From Deltaproteobacteria bacterium (GTDB taxonomy: Bacteria > Desulfobacterota > Syntrophia > Syntrophales > UBA5619), in contig JAMDBG010000088.1 in the NCBI GenBank assembly GCA_023487865.1, positions 1-56,200 of the forward strand: a DNA stretch of 56,200 nucleotides, in the 5' to 3' direction. Shown here in pieces: positions 37,891 to 49,288 of this stretch; position 1 is the stretch's first letter, and every line of letters starts with the position of its first letter. Below the pieces are notes generated by a model. The model ran no database searches, was not told the origin of the DNA, and was given only the letters and a program-made list of their open reading frames with translations. The translations under genes were made by a program, and so were the position numbers.

Positions 37891-39345
37891 TTAGACAGAG
37901 AACTTTTTCTTGTGTTTCTGCTCGATCCCGCGAGTCACAAAGGTGAGTATCGCCGCTACAACCAAAAGGGCTGCCGCCATGATATACGCGTTGTCATAAT
38001 TTCCTGCCCCGGTGGTCTGCTTCGCCGCCTCGAACATCTTGCCGGCGATAAAAGAAAGCAAAAATCCTCCAACGCCCCATGCGGTGAACACAAGTCCATA
38101 GTTGACCCCGAAGTTCTTAAGCCCGAAGTTGTCCTTGGTTGCAGAGGGGAATACTGACAGGCATGCGCCGTAGTTAAATCCGATCAACATGGAGACAACA
38201 ATAAAGGCGACCATATCGGAAAGCCCTGTCCTTAGCACCATCATGAGGGCCGCCTGGAAAACAAAGATGATGAACATCGTCCAGAGCCGGCCTATCGCGT
38301 CGGAGAGCATCCCTGCAATAATGCGCCCTGATGCATTGCCTACCGCAAGGAGCGCTACGAGAATGAATCCCGCCTCAATCTTCCCGATCTTGGCAATCGT
38401 TGTGACCATGCTGATGATCATCAATCCTGCACCTGCCCCGAAGGTAAACATAACCCAGAGAAGGTAGAACAGAGGGGTTTTGAGCATCTCAACCGGCCCG
38501 ATATTTACCGCAGCGGCCGTGATGGCATTTGCTGAGTTTGCTTCAGGCGGTTTGTATCCGACCGGTGGTGGAGTGAGCAGCTGAGACAGGAGGGTAACGA
38601 CGATGAGGAATCCGATCCCGAATATAAGTAATGTCTTTTGGATGTTGGCCTCCTGGAGTGCGAGAAGTTGTCCCGCGGCAACCTGTGCCGCAGTCTCTTT
38701 TTCGGCAACGGTTTTCTGCAGTGCCAGTGCTTCAGCACCCTTGGCCGGATCTGATTTTGCCAAGTTCAAGTGACTCTGCGCTTCCTTGAGTGCGGTTTCG
38801 GCATCGGTTTTGGCAGTAATCATTCTCTCCATTACCGGCATCGGTTTCCCGCTGAGGTTGTAACCGGTAATATAATTGGCCAGCGGAGAAATGTATACCG
38901 AGGCCAGACCGAATCCTGCTACTACGATTCCGGCTATCAGACCGGTTTTCTTGGCCGAAAACCATTTCACGGCAGGGGGCGTGGCGGCAGCATAGCCCAA
39001 ACCGATTCCGGCACCAGCCAAGAGGCCAAAACCGATGACGTACCAGAGCACAGATGTCGCGAAGGATGCAATGATACAGCCGATCCCCGTCAAGACCCCT
39101 CCGGCAGTCGACACCCAGCGGGGCCCTATTCTATCCTGCAGGCGACCTGCGGGAACCGTCATGAGGGCAAAGGTGATACACGCAATCGAATAGGGAAGAG
39201 CCTTATCCGCGTCATCCCATCCCCACTCGGCAGGGATTGCTTTTTTAATGACACTCCAGCTATAAAGCACACCCAGTGCCAAATTAACACCCATCCCTGC
39301 AAAAGTCACAGTCCAACCCTTGTTCTTGACAACCATTTCTGTCAT
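37891..39345 (-). CDS. MFS transporter, oxalate/formate antiporter (OFA)-like
   Basis: Typical N-terminus WTVTFAGMGVNLALGVLYSWSV and block PAGRLQDRIGPR. Likely start is MTEMVV (ATG 39345, GAGAAGGAA upstream). The track ORF extends to 39396. Confidence 0.8.
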   Translation of the reverse strand: MTEMVVKNKGWTVTFAGMGVNLALGVLYSWSVIKKAIPAEWGWDDADKALPYSIACITFALMTVPAGRLQDRIGPRWVSTAGGVLTGIGCIIASFATSVLWYVIGFGLLAGAGIGLGYAAATPPAVKWFSAKKTGLIAGIVVAGFGLASVYISPLANYITGYNLSGKPMPVMERMITAKTDAETALKEAQSHLNLAKSDPAKGAEALALQKTVAEKETAAQVAAGQLLALQEANIQKTLLIFGIGFLIVVTLLSQLLTPPPVGYKPPEANSANAITAAAVNIGPVEMLKTPLFYLLWVMFTFGAGAGLMIISMVTTIAKIGKIEAGFILVALLAVGNASGRIIAGMLSDAIGRLWTMFIIFVFQAALMMVLRTGLSDMVAFIVVSMLIGFNYGACLSVFPSATKDNFGLKNFGVNYGLVFTAWGVGGFLLSFIAGKMFEAAKQTTGAGNYDNAYIMAAALLVVAAILTFVTRGIEQKHKKKFSV

Positions 39346-39589
39346 TTCCTTCTCACCTTTCATGCCGTATTGGATTGGTAAGTATGTCTGCCGCATATAA
39401 CGGTCGGGCCCGGCGATACCCGATGATGGTGCGGTATTTCCACGTCATGCATCTTTCAACAAAAAAGCATCGGTAAAAAATACGTACAAAATATCGGAAT
39501 CGAAAGTTTGTGCGCTTTCTTATTCCCGGTGATTCAAAATGTCAATCTGTATAATTTTTATATACTTCAGATGCGGTAGTTGTAAAACG

Positions 39590-40011: not shown

Positions 40012-40476
40012 CTATTCGTTGATCCGCGTCGTGAACTCAAGATGAACGCCGTCGGGCAGGACGACAAACTGAATTTTGTTGCCCTTGTTGGGACCCTGGT
40101 CCACCTCCATTGGATAAGGCGACAGGGTCTGGATTCGCTGGTCGTATTGTTTACACGCTCTAACCACCGCCTCTACATCATCAACCACGAAGGACAGGTG
40201 AAAATGTCCCATATCCACCATTCGGGGTCGATATTCATGCCGATCCGACGGACCGCTGTAATCTTGCAACTCCAGTGAATGCCCTGCACAGTCCATGTAG
40301 GCGATCATCACCTGAGTACCTGGAACGCCGGTGACAAATGACTGATTCCTGAGATCACGCGGCGCCTTGTCAATCAATTTGAATCCCAATACCTGCTGGA
40401 AAAAGCCGATGGTCCAGTCGAGATCGCCCACACATAATCCTGTGTGAAATATTCGCTTAATGGTAAAATCGGACAT
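40012..40476 (-). CDS. VOC (glyoxalase/bleomycin-resistance/dioxygenase) family protein
   Basis: IFHTGLCVGDLDWTIGFFQQVLGFKL and HLSFVVDD blocks. Start at MSDFT (ATG 40476), which has AAGGAG upstream. Confidence 0.75.
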   Translation of the reverse strand: MSDFTIKRIFHTGLCVGDLDWTIGFFQQVLGFKLIDKAPRDLRNQSFVTGVPGTQVMIAYMDCAGHSLELQDYSGPSDRHEYRPRMVDMGHFHLSFVVDDVEAVVRACKQYDQRIQTLSPYPMEVDQGPNKGNKIQFVVLPDGVHLEFTTRINE

Positions 40477-40489
40477 AGGTCTTTTCTCC

Positions 40490-42055
40490 TTATTTGTTAT
40501 TATTTCCATGTGTTATCCAAACTTGCGGAAGATCCATCCTGGCAAGTTCTTCAAAATGATGCTGCACTTCCGTGTAGAGTTTTTTGTACATAGGATATAA
40601 CCGATTGTAGGCGGCGTGCGCCTCTGTGTTTGGTTCAAACTCTTTTCCCGGAACCACTATGTTTTCTATGGCAGACGCGAGATCAGGATAGATGCCCTGG
40701 CTGATACCTGCCAGGACTGCCGCACCCAGCACTTCCGTGTGGCTTTGGGTAAGACTGACTACTTTCTTCCCCAGAATATCGGCGATGATCTGGTTCCAGA
40801 CCTTGCTTGTAGCGGCTGCACCGCCGATCCGCAACTCCTTAATGTCAATGCCATCATCGGTTTCAAGGAGTTCGATGACATGCCGGATGGCAAAGGAGGC
40901 CCCCTCCAATACCGACCGGAAAAAATCATTACGATTATGCCCCAGGGTGACTCCGAAAAATACCCCCCGCGCATAGGGATTCCAAATAGGGGTCCGCTCA
41001 CCGGAAATATAGGGGAGAAACAACAATCCCTTGCTTCCGGGAGGAGACTTGGCGGCTTGGTCGGTAATCAGGTCATATACATCCAGACCGCTAAAACCTG
41101 CGACCGTCTGCTCCATTTGGCAAAAGGTGTCCCGAATCCACCTCAATGACGAACCCACCCCGTTAACGGCACCGATATAGAGCCATAAGTCTGGAAGTAC
41201 ATGGGTACAGTTCATAAAACGACTGTCGAAATGAGACTTTCCCAACGGACCGGAAACCCTTGCCGCAGTCCCCATAATGACAAAGCATTCGCCTTGCTTG
41301 ATGACTCCGGATCCGATTGAGGCGCCGATGGTGTCCATGCAGCCGGCAATAACGGGAGTCCCTTGTTTTAGCCCGGTCAAATGCGCGGTTTCAGCAGTTA
41401 TCCTTCCGACCACCGCATCGGAGGGCTCCGGTTTGGGGAGCTTTTCCTCGGGAATATCAAGCGCAGCGAGGAAAGGCTGGTGCCATTTTTTTTTGCGAAT
41501 ATCAAAAAGCAATGTCGTTGAGGCTCGTGAATAGTCGATCGTGAACTCCCCGGTGAAACGGGCTACCAGGTACCCGCCGGGAACCATGAGTTTGTGCGCC
41601 GCTTTAAATGTTTCCGGTTCATGGTGTTTCAACCAGAGTAGAGTCGGTAGTGAATAAGCACCCGGGGCCACTGGATTTCCGGTGATCTTAAAAACCATAT
41701 CCGCATCCAGAATATTTCTGATTCGGTCGACTTCCGGCAGGGCGCGCTGATCCCAGAGCATGATCGCCGGTCTCAAGGGCTTTCCCTGGCGATCGACTGC
41801 GACGAGCCCATTGGTGCATCCGATGCCGACAGCCAAAATCTCGTCGGCAGGCACATCACGGACGGCTTCCCGAACCGCTTTAACCGTCGCCTTCCACCAC
41901 GCCTCGGCATCATGTTCGGCCTGCCCCGGCACGGTGCTGATCATTTGATACTCACCATAACCGGTTCCCACCAGTTTGCCTTCAATGGTGAAAACGCCAG
42001 CCTTGGAGCCGGTTCCCCCGATATCGATGCCCAGCAAATACGGACCGTGTTTCAT
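40490..42055 (-). CDS. FGGY-family carbohydrate kinase
   Basis: 521-aa ORF with LLGIDIGGTGSKAGVF, GCMDTIGASIG, and the C-terminal block RIGGAAATSKVWNQIIADILG. Confidence 0.85.
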   Translation of the reverse strand: MKHGPYLLGIDIGGTGSKAGVFTIEGKLVGTGYGEYQMISTVPGQAEHDAEAWWKATVKAVREAVRDVPADEILAVGIGCTNGLVAVDRQGKPLRPAIMLWDQRALPEVDRIRNILDADMVFKITGNPVAPGAYSLPTLLWLKHHEPETFKAAHKLMVPGGYLVARFTGEFTIDYSRASTTLLFDIRKKKWHQPFLAALDIPEEKLPKPEPSDAVVGRITAETAHLTGLKQGTPVIAGCMDTIGASIGSGVIKQGECFVIMGTAARVSGPLGKSHFDSRFMNCTHVLPDLWLYIGAVNGVGSSLRWIRDTFCQMEQTVAGFSGLDVYDLITDQAAKSPPGSKGLLFLPYISGERTPIWNPYARGVFFGVTLGHNRNDFFRSVLEGASFAIRHVIELLETDDGIDIKELRIGGAAATSKVWNQIIADILGKKVVSLTQSHTEVLGAAVLAGISQGIYPDLASAIENIVVPGKEFEPNTEAHAAYNRLYPMYKKLYTEVQHHFEELARMDLPQVWITHGNNNK

Positions 42056-42316
42056 GAATCACCATACCTCAAGTTGAATGACGGCCGTCAATGTCAACGG
42101 CGTTACCGACAGATGCTGAAAGGGTCGATGGGTGGATCCGTGAGCCATTGTACGATCTCCGGTGTGATTTGTCCGGAAGCGGTCAGTTTCCGGAGGATGC
42201 CTTCGTCCATGACATGAAAAAATAATCGATGTCGGGTCATTGTGAAGCGATCACATGATGGATGGATTCAATAACCAAACGCGTTGAGTGGATGAGCCCC
42301 AGGACCCGCATTTCTT

Positions 42317-43366
42317 TCAGCCCGCTTTTATCTCTCCGGTAATGGATTGGGTTTTGTTCTGTAATTTAAGATTGGCTGCAAGACGGCTGGCTGTCAGAAA
42401 GGCTCTGATGAGACCCTCGGGATTGGCCTTGCCCTGACCTGCAATGTCGAATGCCGAACCGTGAGCGGGTGTGGCAATCGCTATCGGCAGTCCTCCGTGT
42501 ACCGTGATGCCCCGGTCGAAACCCATCAGCTTGGTCGCGATTTGACCCTGGTCATGGTACATGGAGACGACTGCATGATAGTTTCCTTTTTTGATGCGCA
42601 GATAGATGGTGTCGGCCGGAAAGGGACCTTCGGCACTAATTCCTTCCGCCTTTGCCATTTCTATGGCCGGCGAGATGGCCTCTTTTTCTTCCGATCCAAA
42701 CATTCCCCCCTCGCCGGCATGCGGATTGAGCGCCGAGACCGCCAAACGCGGGTTTTTCACTCCAAAGGTTCGCAACACGCCGTCCATGAAGCGGATTGTG
42801 TTGTGGACATTTTCCCTGGTAATCAAGGCGCTGACCTGACTGATCCCGATGTGAGAGGTGACCCGTGTGGTCCAGAGATCATCCAACACATTCACCTCAC
42901 CGGGAATGTTCGGCCGGTTGAATTTGGCTTTGAAGAAGTCAAGCTCGCTATGATAGGGCAACCCCCCTAGGATCATCGCTTCCTTGTTAAAAGGAGCGAA
43001 TATAAATCCGTCAATTTTTTTGTCAATCGCGAGATCCAGCATGAAAGAGAGTGTATTGACGACCGCCTTGCCTGATTTGAGATTGACTTTTCCCAGGGTG
43101 ACTTCCTCATCGGAAATCGCAGGATAATCGTAAAAGAAAGGCTGGCCGATGGCGGACCCGGCAGATTCTATATGGTCCGTTAAAGTGACAGGCTGGAAAA
43201 GGCCGGCGATCTTCTGCCCCATCCGGAAAACACAGTGATCGCCAACAATCAGGACATTGGCCTGTTCGTAAATCTCAGGGCGGCTGATAAGTTTGGCAAC
43301 GATTTCCGGGCCGATACCCGAAGAATCCCCCAACAGGACGCCCAGCGTCGGTTTTTTTTTACTCAC
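42317..43366 (-). CDS. pdxA: PdxA-family NAD-dependent 4-phospho-hydroxyacid dehydrogenase (context suggests PdxA2-like, catabolic)
   Basis: 349-aa ORF with LGDSSGIGPEIV, LNPHAGEGG, MYHDQG and TPAHGSAFDIAGQGKANP. Confidence 0.8.
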   Translation of the reverse strand: MSKKKPTLGVLLGDSSGIGPEIVAKLISRPEIYEQANVLIVGDHCVFRMGQKIAGLFQPVTLTDHIESAGSAIGQPFFYDYPAISDEEVTLGKVNLKSGKAVVNTLSFMLDLAIDKKIDGFIFAPFNKEAMILGGLPYHSELDFFKAKFNRPNIPGEVNVLDDLWTTRVTSHIGISQVSALITRENVHNTIRFMDGVLRTFGVKNPRLAVSALNPHAGEGGMFGSEEKEAISPAIEMAKAEGISAEGPFPADTIYLRIKKGNYHAVVSMYHDQGQIATKLMGFDRGITVHGGLPIAIATPAHGSAFDIAGQGKANPEGLIRAFLTASRLAANLKLQNKTQSITGEIKAG

Positions 43367-43448
43367 GATCGTCTCCAGTCATAAAAGGTGCAAGATTTTT
43401 TTTGAAACCTGTTCTTCTGTACATTTGGCTGGATCATATCAACAGCCA

Positions 43449-44117
43449 TCACCGTTTATTCACTTTTTCATAGTCATCCAACTGGTTCATGACATGCCGC
43501 TTCATCAGGGCTACGGCTGACTCTTTATCGTGCAGTTTCATCGCATGAATGATTTCATCGTGGTGTCTGACATATAATTTTAATTTTTCCAAAGGAAGCC
43601 GCAGAACAAGTCGCAACAATTGGACCTTTGCGTCAAGTTTTTCATATATTTCATATAGATGACGGTTACCAGTACGCCGTGCGATTTCCAGATGTAAAAG
43701 GCTGTCTTTTTCAAAAGTGGAAGCAATATCGCCATCGGCAATCAATCCGTTGCATTCCTTTGCCAAAAGCTCAAGCTCTCGGAAATCCTTTTTTGTTCCA
43801 CAATCCGCCAACAGACTCACTGCCAGGGTTTCCAGCTGCGCTCTGATCACCGCAATTTGGCCTGCCTCCTGCGGTGCAAGTGAGACAACCTCCGCATGGG
43901 AACGGGGTTTTATTTGGATAAGACCGTATTCTTCCAGACGGTTCAAAGCTTCCCGGATGGGCGTCCTGCTGACGCCGAACTGCTGGGCAACCTTCTCTTC
44001 AGGGATCCTTTCTCCACCACGAATTACCCCGGACAATATCAAGCGCTTAACATAATGATAGACTTGATCCGAGAGGCTTTGACGATGAATTTCATACATA
44101 ATAACACTACATTTCAT
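43449..44117 (-). CDS. GntR-family transcriptional regulator (FadR/FCD subfamily)
   Basis: wHTH block VAQQFGVSRTPIREALNRLEEYGLI plus a helical FCD-like C-terminus. The alternative start ATG 44099 (MYEIH) would avoid the 11-nt overlap with tctA. Confidence 0.85.
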   Translation of the reverse strand: MKCSVIMYEIHRQSLSDQVYHYVKRLILSGVIRGGERIPEEKVAQQFGVSRTPIREALNRLEEYGLIQIKPRSHAEVVSLAPQEAGQIAVIRAQLETLAVSLLADCGTKKDFRELELLAKECNGLIADGDIASTFEKDSLLHLEIARRTGNRHLYEIYEKLDAKVQLLRLVLRLPLEKLKLYVRHHDEIIHAMKLHDKESAVALMKRHVMNQLDDYEKVNKR

Positions 44118-45624
44118 CCACGACAGGCAGTTCGAGAGCCTTTTTCCCCTTTGAGAACCGAGCGACCATCAGCGGCCATAAGAGTGAAACGGCAATGAGT
44201 GCGATAAGGATGATCGTGATCGGTCTCTCGAAGAAAATGACGAGACTCCCCTGCGACATCTTCAGGGCGAGTTTAAGGTTCTTTTCCATGATGGGCCCCA
44301 GCACAAGTGCGAGCAGCAGCGGTGCCGCCGGATAATCAAATTTGCGCATCAGGTAACCCACGATACCGAAGACGAACATGATCCAAAGATCGACATAACT
44401 TCCACCGACCGTGTAGGCGCCCAGTGATATGAACAAAAGGATGATCGGAATGAGGACCGGATAGGGTACCTTGAGTATTTTGATCCAGACACCGATCATG
44501 GGAAGGTTGAGGATCAGGAGCAGGACGTTGCCGATATACATGCTGGTTACGACACCCCAGAAAAAATCCGGCCTCTCCGTCAAAAGGAGCGGCCCGGGGC
44601 GTAATCCATACATCATCAATGCGCCCATCAGGATCGCCACCGTGGCAGAAGAGGGGATCCCCAGCGTCAACAGGGGCACGAGCGCTCCCCCGGTCGCGGC
44701 ATTGTTCGCCGTCTCTGCGGCACAGACGCCCTCTATCGCCCCATTCCCGAATCTCTCCGGTGTTTTGGATGCCTTCTTCTCGGCGGCGTATGCCATAAAG
44801 GCCGAAACCGTCGCCCCGGCCCCAGGCAGGGATCCGATCAGGAAACCGATGATTGTCGAACGAACGATCGTCCATCTGCAGGCCAGCCAGTCCGACTTGG
44901 TAGGCAAGAGAGAACCGATCTGTTCGGAATAGACGCTTTTTTTAAGCGATCCCTCAAGATTGATCAATATTTCGCCAAGGGCGAAAAGTCCCATGGCTAC
45001 GGAAACGAATCCGATACCGTCCAACAGATCCGGCCGACCAAAAGTAAAACGCTGGACGCCGGCCACCGGATCGAGACCCACGGTGCCGATCAGCATCCCC
45101 AGAAATCCCATCCCCAGACCTTTATAAAGGCTTTTACCCGCCAGTCGGGTCAGTGTGGCGAGTCCCAGCAACATGAGGGCGAAATATTCCGGAGGACCGA
45201 AAGAGAGGGCAAGTTTGGCTATGGGGGGAGCGATGAGCATCAGTCCAATGACGGAGAGTGTGCCGCCGAGAAAGGAGCCGATCGCCGACATGCCGAGGGC
45301 TGCGCCAGCCCTGCCCTGCCTTGCCATCTGGTAACCGTCAACCGCGGTCATGACGGAGGCCGATTCACCCGGTACGTTGATGAGGATGGATGTCGTGGAA
45401 CCGCCGTACATCGCACCGCAGTAAATACCCGCCAACATGATCGTCGCGGTGATGGAATCCATCCCGAATGTGATCGGGATGAGGATCGCAACCCCCGTTA
45501 CGGGACCAATCCCCGGCAGGACGCCGATCAGAGTGCCGGCCAGGACGCCGATGAAACAGTAGAGTAAATTAATCGGTTGCAGCGCAATACTGAATCCGAG
45601 GATAACATTTTGAATGATATCCAT
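44107..45624 (-). CDS. tctA: tripartite tricarboxylate transporter, large permease TctA
   Basis: 505-aa polytopic ORF with GVLPGIGPVTG and LPGAGATVSAF blocks. Confidence 0.9.
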   Translation of the reverse strand: MDIIQNVILGFSIALQPINLLYCFIGVLAGTLIGVLPGIGPVTGVAILIPITFGMDSITATIMLAGIYCGAMYGGSTTSILINVPGESASVMTAVDGYQMARQGRAGAALGMSAIGSFLGGTLSVIGLMLIAPPIAKLALSFGPPEYFALMLLGLATLTRLAGKSLYKGLGMGFLGMLIGTVGLDPVAGVQRFTFGRPDLLDGIGFVSVAMGLFALGEILINLEGSLKKSVYSEQIGSLLPTKSDWLACRWTIVRSTIIGFLIGSLPGAGATVSAFMAYAAEKKASKTPERFGNGAIEGVCAAETANNAATGGALVPLLTLGIPSSATVAILMGALMMYGLRPGPLLLTERPDFFWGVVTSMYIGNVLLLILNLPMIGVWIKILKVPYPVLIPIILLFISLGAYTVGGSYVDLWIMFVFGIVGYLMRKFDYPAAPLLLALVLGPIMEKNLKLALKMSQGSLVIFFERPITIILIALIAVSLLWPLMVARFSKGKKALELPVVDEM

Positions 45625-45680
45625 TTTGTGGGCATGACCTCCTTATCCGCAGTTGACCGGCATCGCGGTATGACTCCAGG

Positions 45681-46154
45681 CTAAAAATAGAACTCCAAAA
45701 GCCCCATCGGCAGAACAACCTTGAGCCAGATGACGAACAGGGCATAAGTTCCAATGGTGGCGATCAGGCTGATTGCGATATTGATGTGCCACGATACCTT
45801 CAGGTACCAGAGCAGGAATGTAAGGAAAATAAAGGTAACAATCAAATACCCGAGTGGTTCCAGCAGGAAATTGTAAAAAGCGGTAGCTCCGGCAACCACG
45901 GCAATCCGGATGGCGCCCGCTCGATCAGACGCAAACCAGCCCGGCATCCGGTTGGCCGGAGGCAGGGAACGGGCCTGAAATACGATGCCCGCCCCGCAGA
46001 TGGCCAATGCTATCGAGAGCAATGTCGGCATGAAGGACGGGCCGGCGAACTCTTTTGCGATAGTGCCCGGCAACAACTGCGCGGCCACTCCAAAGACGAG
46101 CGCCAGGACAATCAAAAACAGGCCGCTGATCGTATCGGCGGTTCTCTCTGTCAT
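45681..46154 (-). CDS. tctB: tripartite tricarboxylate transporter, small permease TctB
   Basis: 157-aa ORF with four hydrophobic helices, located between tctC and tctA. Confidence 0.7.
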   Translation of the reverse strand: MTERTADTISGLFLIVLALVFGVAAQLLPGTIAKEFAGPSFMPTLLSIALAICGAGIVFQARSLPPANRMPGWFASDRAGAIRIAVVAGATAFYNFLLEPLGYLIVTFIFLTFLLWYLKVSWHINIAISLIATIGTYALFVIWLKVVLPMGLLEFYF

Positions 46155-46218
46155 TTCTCCCCCTTGATACGGCGAAGGCGCAGTTCAATCCTGCGCCCTC
46201 GCTTAAGAAACAATTTTG

Positions 46219-47238
46219 TTATTTCTTCTTTAAAAGCCCGGCTCCCTCCATAATCGTCTTGTAGGCCGCGTATTCTTCCTCAGCTTCCTTTTTCATGTCG
46301 TCCCCGGTCACGAACACGCCAACCTGGAGGAATTTGTCGAGATACTGTTCTTTCCACTCCTTGCTGTCGGTGATCTTTTTCAAGGCGTTTATCAGCCAGT
46401 CCTGCGGCTCCTTGGCCATTCCCTTCGGTCCCGCAACACCCCGCCACTGAGAGAGCGAGACATTGACACCGGCTTCCTTCCATGTGGGAATGTCTTTGAA
46501 TACGGCGGAGTCGAAACCGAGGCGTTTTTCGGAGGAGACGCCAAGCGACCTGACCTTCCCCGCGCGGATCTGCTCGTACGCCTCGCCGGGATTGGCGATA
46601 GCGGCTTCGACATGGCCGCCCAGCAGGTTGGTCATCACCTGACCGCCGCTGTCGAAGCCGATATAGTTGAACTTGACACCGGCAGCCTTTTCGAACATGG
46701 CGATATGAAGTACATCGATCTGTGAAACGCCGGTTCCGGCTACCTTTACCGTATTGGCCTTGGCCTTGGCCGCCGTCACGAGATCCTTCAGCGCCTTGAA
46801 GGGAGAGTCCATGCGGACCACGATCATCTGGTAATCCCGGTTCAGCTTGGCGATGTAGGTGAAATCGTTGTAAGGCCAGGGTGAATTGCCGAACAGATCG
46901 ACCACGGTGCTGCTGTCATCGGCACAGGTGATCGTATAGCCGTCGGCAGGCTTGCCCTTGGCGTATGACTTGCCCACTACACCGCTGCCCCCACTCTTGT
47001 TCTCGATCACCAGTGGCTGAGGAAGGACCTTGAGCTGGGTGCCGACCTTGTCGATGACGCGCACCATGATGTCGGTGCCACCTCCCGGTGCATACGGCAC
47101 TACAAAAAGGATCGGCTTCGCAGGGAATTTCGCTCCCGCGGCATAGCCTGTCAATGCCGTAGCATGAGACAGAAGACTGATTGCCCCCAGGAGAAGCACC
47201 ATACACACAACATTTCGGACCGCTAATCTTTTCTTCAT
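46219..47238 (-). CDS. tctC: tripartite tricarboxylate transporter substrate-binding protein (TctC/Bug family)
   Basis: Signal peptide MKKRLAVRNVVCMVLLLGAISLLSHA and the VVPYAPGGGTDIM block typical of Bug/TctC proteins. Confidence 0.85.
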   Translation of the reverse strand: MKKRLAVRNVVCMVLLLGAISLLSHATALTGYAAGAKFPAKPILFVVPYAPGGGTDIMVRVIDKVGTQLKVLPQPLVIENKSGGSGVVGKSYAKGKPADGYTITCADDSSTVVDLFGNSPWPYNDFTYIAKLNRDYQMIVVRMDSPFKALKDLVTAAKAKANTVKVAGTGVSQIDVLHIAMFEKAAGVKFNYIGFDSGGQVMTNLLGGHVEAAIANPGEAYEQIRAGKVRSLGVSSEKRLGFDSAVFKDIPTWKEAGVNVSLSQWRGVAGPKGMAKEPQDWLINALKKITDSKEWKEQYLDKFLQVGVFVTGDDMKKEAEEEYAAYKTIMEGAGLLKKK

Positions 47239-47421
47239 CTGATGACTCCTTTCAAAAGTGAATGTAACGGGAAAGCATTCCCACCCTTGCCTGTATCACC
47301 ATCCAGTCTTACGTGACCGGGAAAATGATTAAAGACCGAACCAAAGGATCCTATGTCATTCCTTGACACAATAACTTGGGCAGACGTTATCCACTGCGAT
47401 CGGGTCCATCTGGTGGGTTGG

Positions 47422-47446
47422 ATTTTGTACACAATACACAATTTGT
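47422..47446. promoter_or_regulatory. candidate GntR-type operator(s) upstream of tctC
   Basis: ATTTTGT-ACACAAT (47422-47435, 6/7 palindromic, GT..AC core) and the perfect palindrome ACAATTTGT (47438-47446). A tandem ACACAAT repeat lies between them. Confidence 0.25.
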
Positions 47447-47632
47447 CAAGCTATTTTTTATCCCTGCTGATCACCACGCCTTTGATGAGGCTAAAAATGT
47501 CCGGGTCGAAATATGAAAAGACGAGTACCCACTGTCGGGTATAACAAATAGATGTTTCGATCCCATCGCCGAATACAAAAAGAAAAAAAGCTCAAGAGAA
47601 AAAGCCTATAGAGTTTTCAGCAGGTGATGCTC

Positions 47633-47720
47633 TGGTGCCTGGGGCGGGAATCGAACCCGCACAGCCTCAAGGACCGAGGGATTTTAAGTCCCTTGCGTCT
47701 ACCAATTCCGCCACCCAGGC
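47633..47720 (-). tRNA. tRNA-Leu (anticodon UAA), class II with long variable arm, CCA encoded
   Basis: Reverse complement folds as GCCTGGG-TG-GCGG-AATTGGTAGA-CGC-A-AGGGA-CTTAAAA-TCCCT-(16-nt variable arm)-GCGGG-TTCGATT-CCCGC-CCCAGGC-A-CCA. All four stems pair perfectly. Confidence 0.92.
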
Positions 47721-47740
47721 AGTGCAATCAGAGTGTGGAA

Positions 47741-47769
47741 TCTATATGCTTTCTAAAAAAGGGTGTCAA
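47741..47769 (-). promoter_or_regulatory. sigma70-like promoter candidate for tRNA-Leu
   Basis: Minus strand TTGACA (47769-47764), 17-nt spacer, TATAGA (47746-47741), 20 nt before the mature 5' end. Confidence 0.45.
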
Positions 47770-47926
47770 GAAATTCGTTCCTGACCCTATCCGGCTTGAT
47801 TTTCGACCAAATGTTGATGACGGTTCTCATAACAGCCATTGTTTGGCCCGGATATTCGCACCCGATCTTTACTGGAAATTTGCATTGATATATGCGAGTT
47901 TTAAAAAATCAAGGGGAGATTTTTCT

Positions 47927-49288
47927 TTGGACAGGTCGGACAAAATACTTGATATCCTGATCACCGGCGGAACCCTCCTTACCATGGCGGCTCCTGCGGA
48001 TATTATCGAAACACCAATGATCGGCATCCGGGACGGAAAGATCCTTTTCGTAGAACCAATGGATCCTCCTTCCGGCTATATTCCGGAGGCGCACGAAGTC
48101 ATTGACGCCTCCGGCTGTCTGGTCATGCCCGGCCTGGTGAACACGCACACCCATCTTCCGATGATCCTTTTCCGGGGTCTTGCCGATGACCTTCCCCTGA
48201 TGACCTGGCTCAATGATCATATTTTCCCCACCGAAGCACGCTACATTAACCGGGATACGGTTTACACCGCCTCCTTCCTGGCCATCGCCGAAATGATCCT
48301 CTCCGGAACGACAACTTTCTGTGACGGATATTTTTTCGAAGGCAGTGTTGCGCGGGCGGCAATCGAATCGGGAATAAGAGCTGTCGTTTCTCAAGGTTTT
48401 ATCGATTCTCCATCGTCCGATCGCTTCGATTCTTCCGGACATGCCACCGTGGCGGAAAAGTTCCTGCAAAAATGGCATGACAGGTCACCGCTTCTCACTC
48501 CGGCACTTATCTGCCATTCCCCCTACATCTGTTCGCCGGATACCCTCACGACGATCAAGGCGGTTTCTCGAGACCATCAATCGCTGTTTCTCATCCATCT
48601 GGCGGAAACCCGCGAGGAAGTCGCCTTGCTCAGGGAGCGCTACGGGAAAAAGCCGGTCCATCTCCTGCAAGATCTGGATCTGCTCGATGAAGCGACGATT
48701 GCCGCACACTGCATCTGGCTCGAACATGATGAGCTTGACCTTTTGGCCAAAGCCGGTGTCAAGGTGGCCCACGACCCGGAAAGCAACATGAAACTTGGCG
48801 CCGGTGTCGCTCCCGTACCGGAGATGCTGCGTCGCGGAATTGACGTAGGGCTGGGAACGGACGGTTGTGCCAGCAATAACAATCTTGATCTCTTTGGAGA
48901 GATGGGAATGTGTGCCAAACTCCATAAGGTCTTCACATCCGATCCCACTGTGATGAAGGCGGAAAAGGTTGTGGAGATGGCCACGCTCGGTGGGGCGAGG
49001 GTTCTGGGAATGGCCGACCGGATAGGCTCCATCTCCCCTGGTAAATCCGCCGATATCATTCTGGTGAATATGAATCAGCCGCACTCGACCCCCTTATACA
49101 ATCCCTTCTCACATGTGGTCTATTCCGCCTCGGGAGCCGATGTGCTGACGAGCATCATCGGCGGGCAGGTTGTCATGCGGAATCGTCGGCTGCTGAGCAT
49201 TGATCTGAATGAGATCATGGGCGAGGTGCGAAGGATCGGCGCGGCGATCCGCGATGATAGAGATTATCGTCGGTCTGCGCGCGGATAG
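47927..49288 (+). CDS. amidohydrolase, MtaD-type (5-methylthioadenosine/S-adenosylhomocysteine deaminase family), paralog 1
   Basis: PGLVNTHTHLPM, IHLAETREE, HDPESNMKL and GTDGCASNN. Start set at TTG 47927, with AAGGGGAG 8 nt upstream. The track's start at 47624 reads through the tRNA gene and is not credible. Confidence 0.8.
   Translation: MDRSDKILDILITGGTLLTMAAPADIIETPMIGIRDGKILFVEPMDPPSGYIPEAHEVIDASGCLVMPGLVNTHTHLPMILFRGLADDLPLMTWLNDHIFPTEARYINRDTVYTASFLAIAEMILSGTTTFCDGYFFEGSVARAAIESGIRAVVSQGFIDSPSSDRFDSSGHATVAEKFLQKWHDRSPLLTPALICHSPYICSPDTLTTIKAVSRDHQSLFLIHLAETREEVALLRERYGKKPVHLLQDLDLLDEATIAAHCIWLEHDELDLLAKAGVKVAHDPESNMKLGAGVAPVPEMLRRGIDVGLGTDGCASNNNLDLFGEMGMCAKLHKVFTSDPTVMKAEKVVEMATLGGARVLGMADRIGSISPGKSADIILVNMNQPHSTPLYNPFSHVVYSASGADVLTSIIGGQVVMRNRRLLSIDLNEIMGEVRRIGAAIRDDRDYRRSARG

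Follow-up and report, generated by a model that had tools for sequence, protein, structure and literature searches.

Relation to described acid-sugar pathways

Homologues of PdxA are routinely annotated as vitamin B6 enzymes. One of them, PdxA2, reportedly acts together with DUF1537 kinases (DtnK or DenK) in the catabolism of D-threonate and D-erythronate. Another member of the family is encoded in the DNA analysed here (the window, meaning the whole stretch of 56,200 nucleotides), which is contig C43 of a 2.2-Mb metagenome-assembled genome (MAG; 79% complete) whose nearest named relatives are Syntrophaceae and Syntrophus MAGs. There the pdxA-like gene lies in an operon at 40012-47238, with genes for a TTT-family transporter (tctC, tctB and tctA), a GntR-family regulator, an FGGY kinase and a VOC-fold protein. 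The operon is a real, rare and uncharacterised one of an uncultured Syntrophaceae bacterium, and probably serves the import and breakdown of an acid sugar or hydroxy-acid. Built around a PdxA subfamily that is uncharacterised, the cluster adds a new variant to acid-sugar catabolism and is caught in the course of losing its accessory genes. The best overall model, to which a probability of roughly 0.45 is assigned, is a GntR-repressed catabolic operon in which the PdxA-like enzyme would decarboxylate a free acid and the FGGY kinase would then phosphorylate the product.

As in the PdxA2-DUF1537 system, a putative PdxA-family oxidative decarboxylase is encoded together with a transporter and a regulator in a cluster for acid-sugar catabolism, apart from the synthesis of pyridoxal 5'-phosphate (PLP). 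However, the kinase here is of the FGGY family, the dehydrogenase falls in a separate clade that lacks the Arg292, Asn283 and GHT residues kept by PdxA2, and the order of kinase and dehydrogenase is probably reversed. The four-step pathway that handles L-threonate as well as D-erythronate (LtnD or DenD, OtnI, OtnK and OtnC) is also similar in part. In related clusters of Desulfobulbales and Myxococcota, a kinase occurs alongside a HIBADH-family dehydrogenase and a protein of the class II aldolase family, OtnK adjoins the related cluster L009, and the window genome itself has an OtnK equivalog (598 bits). In contrast to that pathway, the window cluster has no HIBADH-family, OtnI or OtnC homologue, its kinase is FGGY, and the aldolase-like protein of its relatives falls far below the OtnC cut-off.

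In other described routes, D-ribonate is converted via a 3-oxo acid to D-erythrulose, the substrate of DerK, and the products of Ltn3D or ApnO decarboxylate to dihydroxyacetone, which is phosphorylated by DhaK (PMC13753588, PMC12994016). The preferred model would follow the same logic, in which a free acid sugar is oxidised at C3, CO2 is lost and the ketose is then phosphorylated. The families differ, being SDR, Gfo/Idh/MocA and DhaK in those routes, and decarboxylation is there spontaneous or unassigned, whereas here one PdxA-family enzyme would carry out both steps. The L-threonate 3-dehydrogenase described in 2026 was rejected as a PdxA-family relative because it is an SDR.

The E. coli yiaK-S operon (the TRAP transporter YiaMNO, LyxK, SgbH, SgbU and SgbE) likewise combines a solute-binding-protein-dependent secondary transporter for a keto-acid sugar with an FGGY kinase, and has a class II aldolase-family enzyme, as do relatives of the window cluster. 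It differs in that LyxK is 28% identical to the kinase considered here, decarboxylation follows phosphorylation and is performed by an orotidine 5'-monophosphate decarboxylase-family enzyme, and no PdxA-family member is present. Tartrate dehydrogenase/decarboxylase (Iso_dh family; TtuC) belongs to the same superfamily of metal- and NAD-dependent beta-decarboxylating dehydrogenases and acts on unphosphorylated hydroxy-acids, but it is of another Pfam family, has other metal ligands and has no linked FGGY kinase. A literature search found no paper that ties PdxA homologues to FGGY kinases, TTT systems or L-lyxonate, and no assayed member of the 87-locus PdxA subfamily described below.

The PdxA-like protein and vitamin B6 synthesis

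The PdxA-like enzyme was considered either as a housekeeping PdxA or as an enzyme of 4-hydroxythreonine detoxification or salvage via phosphorylation and PdxA. It has the Pfam PdxA fold with the His triad, it is encoded by the only PF04166 gene in the genome, and PdxA2 is able to carry out the PdxA reaction (PMC9997740). However, PdxS and PdxT are encoded by adjacent genes on contig C180, and no match to PdxJ (PF03740), which would use the product of PdxA, was found in the 79%-complete genome. By the signature-gene criteria for PLP synthesis routes (PMC9997740), this gene content points to PLP being made by the route independent of 1-deoxy-D-xylulose 5-phosphate. The PdxA-like orthologue is present in just 10 of 36 genomes of the family and the gene is therefore dispensable. 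The protein also scores below the PdxA cut-off (TIGR00557; 245.9 bits against 290.35), and the gene shares its operon with a transporter and a GntR regulator. A vitamin B6 role is thus very improbable and, judged on gene content, the PdxA-like enzyme takes no part in vitamin B6 synthesis; the same is probably true of the 87-locus subfamily.

A sequence-only reading of this DNA had proposed a catabolic rather than a housekeeping role for the pdxA-like gene, to be abandoned if this were the sole pdxA and needed for PLP synthesis. No second PF04166 gene was found, yet PdxS and PdxT remove the PLP requirement, and the catabolic role gains further support from the conservation of the transporter and regulator in the cluster and from purifying selection on its genes.

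A distinct PdxA subfamily

The score of the PdxA-like protein against the PdxA2 model was far below the cut-off (NF002891; 195.7 bits against 583); PdxA2 structures were its best sequence matches in the PDB (180 bits). Identity with a TphB-like aromatic dihydrodiol dehydrogenase was rejected, this being the tenth-best PDB match (96 bits), and no dioxygenase genes lie nearby. A quick maximum-likelihood tree (IQ-TREE), which left the basal forks inside the subfamily unresolved, parted 87 subfamily sequences by a long branch (SH-aLRT 99) from the PdxA of Klebsiella, the PdxA2 of Pantoea and an E. coli plasmid homologue that adjoins DUF1537.

These three PdxA/PdxA2-type proteins also served as references for a comparison of residues. 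The metal-binding His172, His216 and His271 (E. coli His166, His211 and His266) are retained in the window protein, as is Lys279 (E. coli Lys274). Thr is found at the position of E. coli Asn283, Ile at Arg292, and YHSE at the GHTE loop; of the residues that reportedly anchor the phospho group in E. coli PdxA (His136, Thr137, Lys274, Asn283 and Arg292), Lys274 is thus kept and Asn283 and Arg292 are not, while the GHTE positions depend on an ambiguous alignment. These changes extend across the subfamily: Arg292 is absent from all 87 members (replaced by Ile, Val, Leu or Met), Asp296 is likewise absent from 87 of 87 (Ala or Cys), the Asn283 position holds Thr in 82 and Ser in the others, and the GHTE motif shows no conserved GHT. 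In the references, GHTE, Arg292 and Asp296 are present in three of three and Asn283 in two. Five residues are invariant in, and peculiar to, the subfamily (Arg168, Ser171, Gln275, Thr299 and Ala301).

Members of the subfamily occur in Pseudomonadota, Desulfobacterota, Bacillota, Acidobacteriota and other phyla, mostly at loci with TTT or TRAP transporters and no kinase. Among its 25 commonest neighbour families, a few of which are unannotated, FGGY was the sole kinase seen (8 loci). Ten unidentified neighbour families were scanned; two gave no Pfam match, and the others comprised enolase-type dehydratases, DHDPS-like proteins, a TIM-barrel isomerase/epimerase, an ABC ATPase, Amidohydro_2, LysR and MFS; distant proteobacterial members adjoin enolase-type acid-sugar dehydratases, DHDPS-like proteins and aldehyde dehydrogenases. 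The residue losses, together with the scarcity of kinases near the subfamily, favour a free, unphosphorylated acid as the substrate of the PdxA-like enzyme.

Assigning the reaction of this subfamily would correct many annotations, including those of homologues in Pseudomonas clusters that resemble the L-lyxonate cluster, and would extend the growing map of C4-C6 acid-sugar catabolism by one step. A further gain would be to learn which carboxylates are taken up by uncultured syntrophs of groundwater, sediment and mine drainage via their many TTT systems.

The FGGY kinase and the order of reactions

The kinase is the product of the genome's single FGGY_N match. It is xylulokinase-like, scoring just below the XylB cut-off (TIGR01312; 367.6 bits against 380.25) and 291 bits against gluconate kinase (TIGR01314), and it reaches no NCBIfam equivalog; its identity is 30% to E. 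coli XylB and 28% to LyxK. Close orthologues were found in 9 of 36 genomes of the family; the rest of the order (303 genomes) gave none, and neither did 400 genomes sampled from the phylum. Nine of the ten family genomes that have the PdxA-like gene also have the kinase and 26 of the 36 have neither, these being related rather than independent genomes; the two genes share an operon in three lineages.

No DUF1537 kinase gene of the kind that accompanies PdxA2 adjoins the pdxA-like gene, the two in the genome being on other contigs. One (C48, 2614-3882, minus strand; L089) encodes the 3-oxo-tetronate kinase (OtnK) equivalog, whose score compares with a cut-off of 350 bits, and adjoins panB without OtnC, OtnI or LtnD neighbours. 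The other (C113, 3286-4641, plus strand; L090) has its closest match in 3-oxo-isoapionate kinase (476 bits, short of the 700-bit cut-off) and has SDR, HAD-hydrolase and Zn-dependent alcohol dehydrogenase genes as neighbours. As these contexts are unrelated to the cluster, the DUF1537 kinases were rejected as hidden pathway partners.

If the kinase were to act first, FGGY would replace DUF1537 in phosphorylating a terminal hydroxyl, and the PdxA-like enzyme would decarboxylate the phospho-acid in the manner of PdxA2 to give dihydroxyacetone phosphate or a ketose phosphate. Such an order would suit the adjacency and shared presence and absence of kinase and dehydrogenase, the retention of Lys279 and possibly of a His-Ser at the GHTE position, and the PdxA2 structures found in the PDB; the invariant Arg168 could be a new phosphate site, and FGGY kinases can act on acid sugars, gluconate kinase being an example. 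It is nevertheless unlikely, as no subfamily member retains Arg292 or Asn283, whereas Arg292 and GHTE are kept by each of the three references, the subfamily is mostly without a kinase, and the cut-offs of both NF002891 and TIGR00557 are missed.

Loci without the kinase also bear on the order. In G681, a relative of the same genus (L118; G681:C7, 9153-9272), all that is left of FGGY is its final 40 codons, flanked by PdxA-like and VOC genes that are intact, and the P0008 locus has the same layout. The persistence of both genes after the FGGY deletion counts against a kinase-first order and, in G681, was counted in favour of an unphosphorylated substrate. Two Bacillota-type loci, L008 (1026-10661; a sister clade) and the more distant Clostridium locus L017 (5660-16728), encode a TTT system, a PdxA-like protein, a racemase-like protein, a TIM-barrel epimerase/isomerase and a split transketolase, and have no kinase; cupin and VOC genes are additionally present in L008, and a sigma-54 activator with a PrpR_N domain in L017. 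Transketolase uses CH2OH-CO- donors, and its presence without a kinase was counted in favour of an unphosphorylated substrate. These observations suggest that the PdxA-like enzyme probably acts before, not after, the FGGY kinase.

The proposal of the sequence-only reading that FGGY replaces a DUF1537 kinase is therefore weak as far as feeding a PdxA2-type enzyme is concerned, given a dehydrogenase outside the PdxA and PdxA2 clades, its residue losses, the mostly kinase-free subfamily, the FGGY deletion in G681, the kinase-free L008 and the DUF1537 OtnK equivalog elsewhere in the genome. An idea of kinase replacement does survive in an altered form, in that FGGY with a class II aldolase in relatives mirrors OtnK-OtnC. 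The catabolic reading is thus supported, whereas a mechanism of PdxA2 with a replacement kinase is doubtful.

The pairing with an aldolase is seen in the Desulfobulbales/Myxococcota version of the cluster, in which the order is VOC, TRAP DctPQM, PdxA-like, HIBADH-family, racemase-like, GntR, FGGY, class II aldolase-family, TctCBA and Amidohydro_2. The HIBADH-family protein is best matched by tartronate-semialdehyde reductase (171 bits, below the cut-off), and identity of the class II aldolase-like protein with OtnC was rejected (83 bits against a cut-off of 250). In L009 the OtnK equivalog lies alongside the cluster, and L086 and L088 hold the bare triad of PdxA-like, racemase-like and FGGY genes amid housekeeping genes.

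Such gene content raises the alternative of a dicarboxylate route, in which the TTT system would import tartrate, a pentarate or a hexarate, and the PdxA-like enzyme would serve as a tartrate dehydrogenase/decarboxylase yielding hydroxypyruvate, 3-oxo-tetronate or 4-keto-pentonate. The VOC protein would isomerise this product, FGGY would phosphorylate glycerate or a keto-acid like OtnK or LyxK, and the racemase lost from the cluster (see below), of a family that binds C4/C5 dicarboxylates, would have epimerised the diacid. The TTT and DctP-type TRAP systems that flank the cluster in relatives, the tartronate-semialdehyde reductase match, the likeness of FGGY plus class II aldolase to OtnK-OtnC, the OtnK equivalogs beside L009 and elsewhere in the window genome, and the split transketolase clusters, which suit a hydroxypyruvate or ketol donor, all accord with this route. 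On the other hand, the aldolase-like protein of relatives is far from OtnC, and no class II aldolase was found in the 79%-complete window genome. To our knowledge there is no FGGY-type glycerate kinase. A dicarboxylate route is accordingly held to be improbable.

In the preferred model, with decarboxylation before phosphorylation, TctCBA would import a free C4 to C6 acid. The PdxA-family enzyme, using NAD+ and a metal held by three His residues, would oxidise the 3-hydroxyl of the unphosphorylated 2,3-dihydroxy-acid and release C1 as CO2, leaving a 1-hydroxy-2-ketone (a CH2OH-CO- ketol) that is shorter by one carbon. A C4 acid would give dihydroxyacetone, a C5 or C6 aldonate would give a tetrulose or pentulose, and an aldarate would give a keto-acid, for instance 3-oxo-tetronate. 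FGGY would phosphorylate the ketol for entry into central metabolism, and in Bacillota transketolase would take it as donor instead. The VOC metalloenzyme may be an accessory isomerase, epimerase or beta-keto-acid handler acting on an enediol-forming intermediate. The lost racemase-family enzyme may have been an epimerase in an accessory role, which let more stereoisomers be used and hence was dispensable, while the HIBADH-family, class II aldolase-family and DXR-like enzymes of relatives might adjust or further process stereoisomers or products.

Several points weigh against this model. The main caveat is that the invariant Arg168, beside a metal-binding His, could bind phosphate as easily as carboxylate. 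The GHTE loop can be aligned in ways that differ by two residues, and a His-Ser pair may be kept at this place in the Syntrophaceae clade; the argument also leans on a phospho-anchoring role of His136, Thr137, Lys274, Asn283 and Arg292 that is reported for the structure of E. coli PdxA with HTP. XylB and LyxK are about equally distant from the FGGY kinase, and an assignment of its substrate by homology was therefore dropped. The coupling of the Desulfobulbales-type FGGY gene to a class II aldolase-family gene implies that the kinase product needs further processing, which routes through 3-oxo-tetronate or a ketose 1-phosphate would fit better than simple dihydroxyacetone.

A gene relic and the loss of accessory genes

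The seven genes listed by the sequence-only reading are as described, but the 261-nt spacer between pdxA-like and FGGY (42056-42316) was overlooked and holds the relic of an eighth. Relatives carry a gene of the Asp/Glu-racemase family (220-230 aa) at this position, intact in L085, L086, L088, L006, L009, L021, L024, L033, L068, L101, L113 and L115. In the window, residues 1-31 (42311-42219) and 30-58 (42222-42136) are recognisable in two different frames, with 65% and 86% identity to the intact 222-aa gene of L085 (tblastn, E = 1.5e-18), and residues 59-222 (about 164 codons) are deleted. Contigs from three further studies span the shortened spacer, and one related strain has an extra 2-nt deletion at the frameshift site. 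The gene is gone from all six cluster-bearing genomes of the window genus (measured spacers, 12-261 nt), one of which, L104, retains a 23-codon relic; two genomes of the sister genus have it intact.

In the intact relatives the first Cys (Cys75, in a VSCSSLSP motif) is invariant, and the position of the second reads LAQIS. The two catalytic Cys residues of Asp/Glu/hydantoin racemases are thus not both present, and the intact homologues may not be classical two-thiol racemases.

By its PF00903 match and metal ligands, the VOC protein belongs to the metalloenzymes that have a paired beta-alpha-beta-beta-beta fold and a His/Glu/His/Glu tetrad. His11, Glu69 and His93 are invariant in eight of eight aligned sequences; the seven orthologues, though not the distant VOC protein of L008, also have the C-terminal Glu (in the LEF/IEF motif, near residue 148) that completes the set of metal ligands. 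The match to the glyoxalase I equivalog is 36 bits, below the cut-off of 120. At G681-type loci, gene callers give a 273-aa 'Glyoxalase' protein, which is probably the VOC protein extended through the FGGY relic.

Among Syntrophaceae the usual order is TctCBA, GntR, PdxA-like, the racemase-family gene (in some), FGGY and VOC, often followed by an oxidoreductase of the DXR-like (DRL_cat) type and another TTT system. The last two come directly after VOC in several relatives and are found on contig C59 (7719-14331; L091) in the window genome, in which a rearrangement has apparently taken place downstream of VOC. In L111 (G679:C64, 7206-11627), the PdxA-like match does not begin until residue 66, VOC is matched over residues 4-92, and DRL gives two separate matches; either the cluster has decayed further there or this MAG, which is 77% complete, contains assembly errors.

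That the whole cluster is a decaying, non-functional remnant would accord with the relic inside it, the loss of FGGY in G681, the truncated or split matches in G679 and the patchy distribution. However, the seven genes are full-length relative to their homologues, and the ratio of non-synonymous to synonymous substitution (dN/dS) was 0.06-0.13 for TctC, TctA, GntR, PdxA-like, FGGY and VOC relative to the same-genus loci L104 and L105, and for the last four also relative to L085; by gene, it was 0.09 for TctC, 0.06 for TctA, 0.06-0.10 for GntR, 0.07-0.10 for FGGY and 0.10-0.13 for VOC. The intact genes of the operon are under purifying selection, and the trimmed operon is therefore still in use. 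Of the six indels listed between related strains and the window, five are confined to the relic, to spacers without coding sequence or to the first base of tctA, the sixth being an in-frame 3-nt change in tctA, and the promoter and operator are conserved. There is consequently very little likelihood that the cluster is a remnant. Such nested relics, of the racemase gene in this operon and of the kinase gene in a sister lineage, clearly illustrate the trimming of an accessory pathway.

More tentatively, the PdxA subfamily with Arg168, without Arg292 and linked to TTT or TRAP systems might represent a new entry route into central metabolism in which free acid sugars or hydroxy-diacids are first decarboxylated and then phosphorylated or transketolated. 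Its new accessories would be a single-Cys racemase-superfamily 2-hydroxy-acid epimerase/decarboxylase and a VOC ketol isomerase, and would be in the process of being lost gene by gene in Syntrophaceae.

Gene layout, regulation and transport

Pfam matches place each of the seven minus-strand genes as previously proposed (Table 1), and a second assembly contains the 7,227-nt cluster with zero differences. Near-identical copies of the operon DNA (40012-47450) were found in nine studies, in metagenomes of sediment, mine tailings, mine drainage, groundwater and soil.

Table 1. Coordinates of the operon genes, the gene relic and the predicted control region in the window.
Feature	Position	Strand	Evidence
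tctC, periplasmic solute-binding protein of TTT transporter	46219-47238	-	PF03401, 133 bits
tctB, small membrane subunit	45681-46154	-	PF07331, 72 bits
tctA, large membrane subunit	44107-45624	-	PF01970, 564 bits
gntR, GntR-family regulator with FCD ligand domain	43449-44117	-	PF00392 and PF07729
pdxA-like, putative NAD-dependent dehydrogenase of a distinct PdxA-family subfamily	42317-43366	-	PF04166, 273 bits
Relic of Asp/Glu-racemase-family gene	42136-42311	-	tblastn with intact L085 gene
FGGY-family carbohydrate kinase	40490-42055	-	PF00370, 197 bits, and PF02782, 114 bits; full-length
VOC (glyoxalase-fold) protein, 154 aa, translationally close-coupled to kinase	40012-40476	-	PF00903, 52 bits
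Promoter-like site and GntR/FadR-type inverted repeat	47422-47449, repeat 47425-47434	-	Promoter scan, conservation in relatives

From tctC to VOC, the intergenic distances are 64, 56, -11, 82, 261 (containing the relic) and 13 nt. The overlap of gntR with tctA that had been described amounts to 11 nt if gntR starts at the ATG at 44117, but disappears with the start six codons later that is preferred by another gene caller. The VOC start does lie close behind the kinase stop (ATG at 40476, stop codon at 40492-40490, 13 nt between them), and is preceded by an AGGAG ribosome-binding site. Between genes, just weak terminator-like hairpins were found, all within coding sequence; with these spacings, transcription of the cluster as one or two units would fit.

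Upstream of tctC, a promoter scan returned TTGACA-16 nt-CAAAAT at 47449-47422 (10 of 12 matches), overlapped by the inverted repeat TTGTGTACAA, which follows the GntR/FadR-type operator pattern TNGT-N-ACNA. The repeat occurs once in the window, no more than expected by chance, and its support comes from conservation in relatives only: a block of about 40 nt is almost unchanged in two orthologous loci, L104 and L005, whereas the surrounding intergenic DNA is not conserved. This supports the identity of the region as a promoter with a predicted GntR operator. The regulator has an N-terminal GntR winged helix-turn-helix and a C-terminal FCD domain, is 80-81% identical in relatives and reaches no NCBIfam equivalog cut-off; it is likely the repressor of the operon. 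TctC, TctB and TctA are encoded by consecutive genes with the Pfam domains of a TTT system, and the tctC orthologues of L005 and L104 are 86-89% identical.

A tRNA-Leu(TAA) gene (47633-47720, minus strand) lies just upstream of the operon promoter. It is overlapped by an open reading frame of 554 aa (47624-49288, plus strand) in which amidohydrolase domain matches begin only at about residue 107; its true start is therefore probably much later. Downstream of the cluster, the gene of an MFS transporter (37891-39396, minus strand) passes the cut-off of the SfMCT-type L-lactate transporter equivalog (390 against 320 bits), and is syntenic with the cluster in L103 and L104 and absent in L105.

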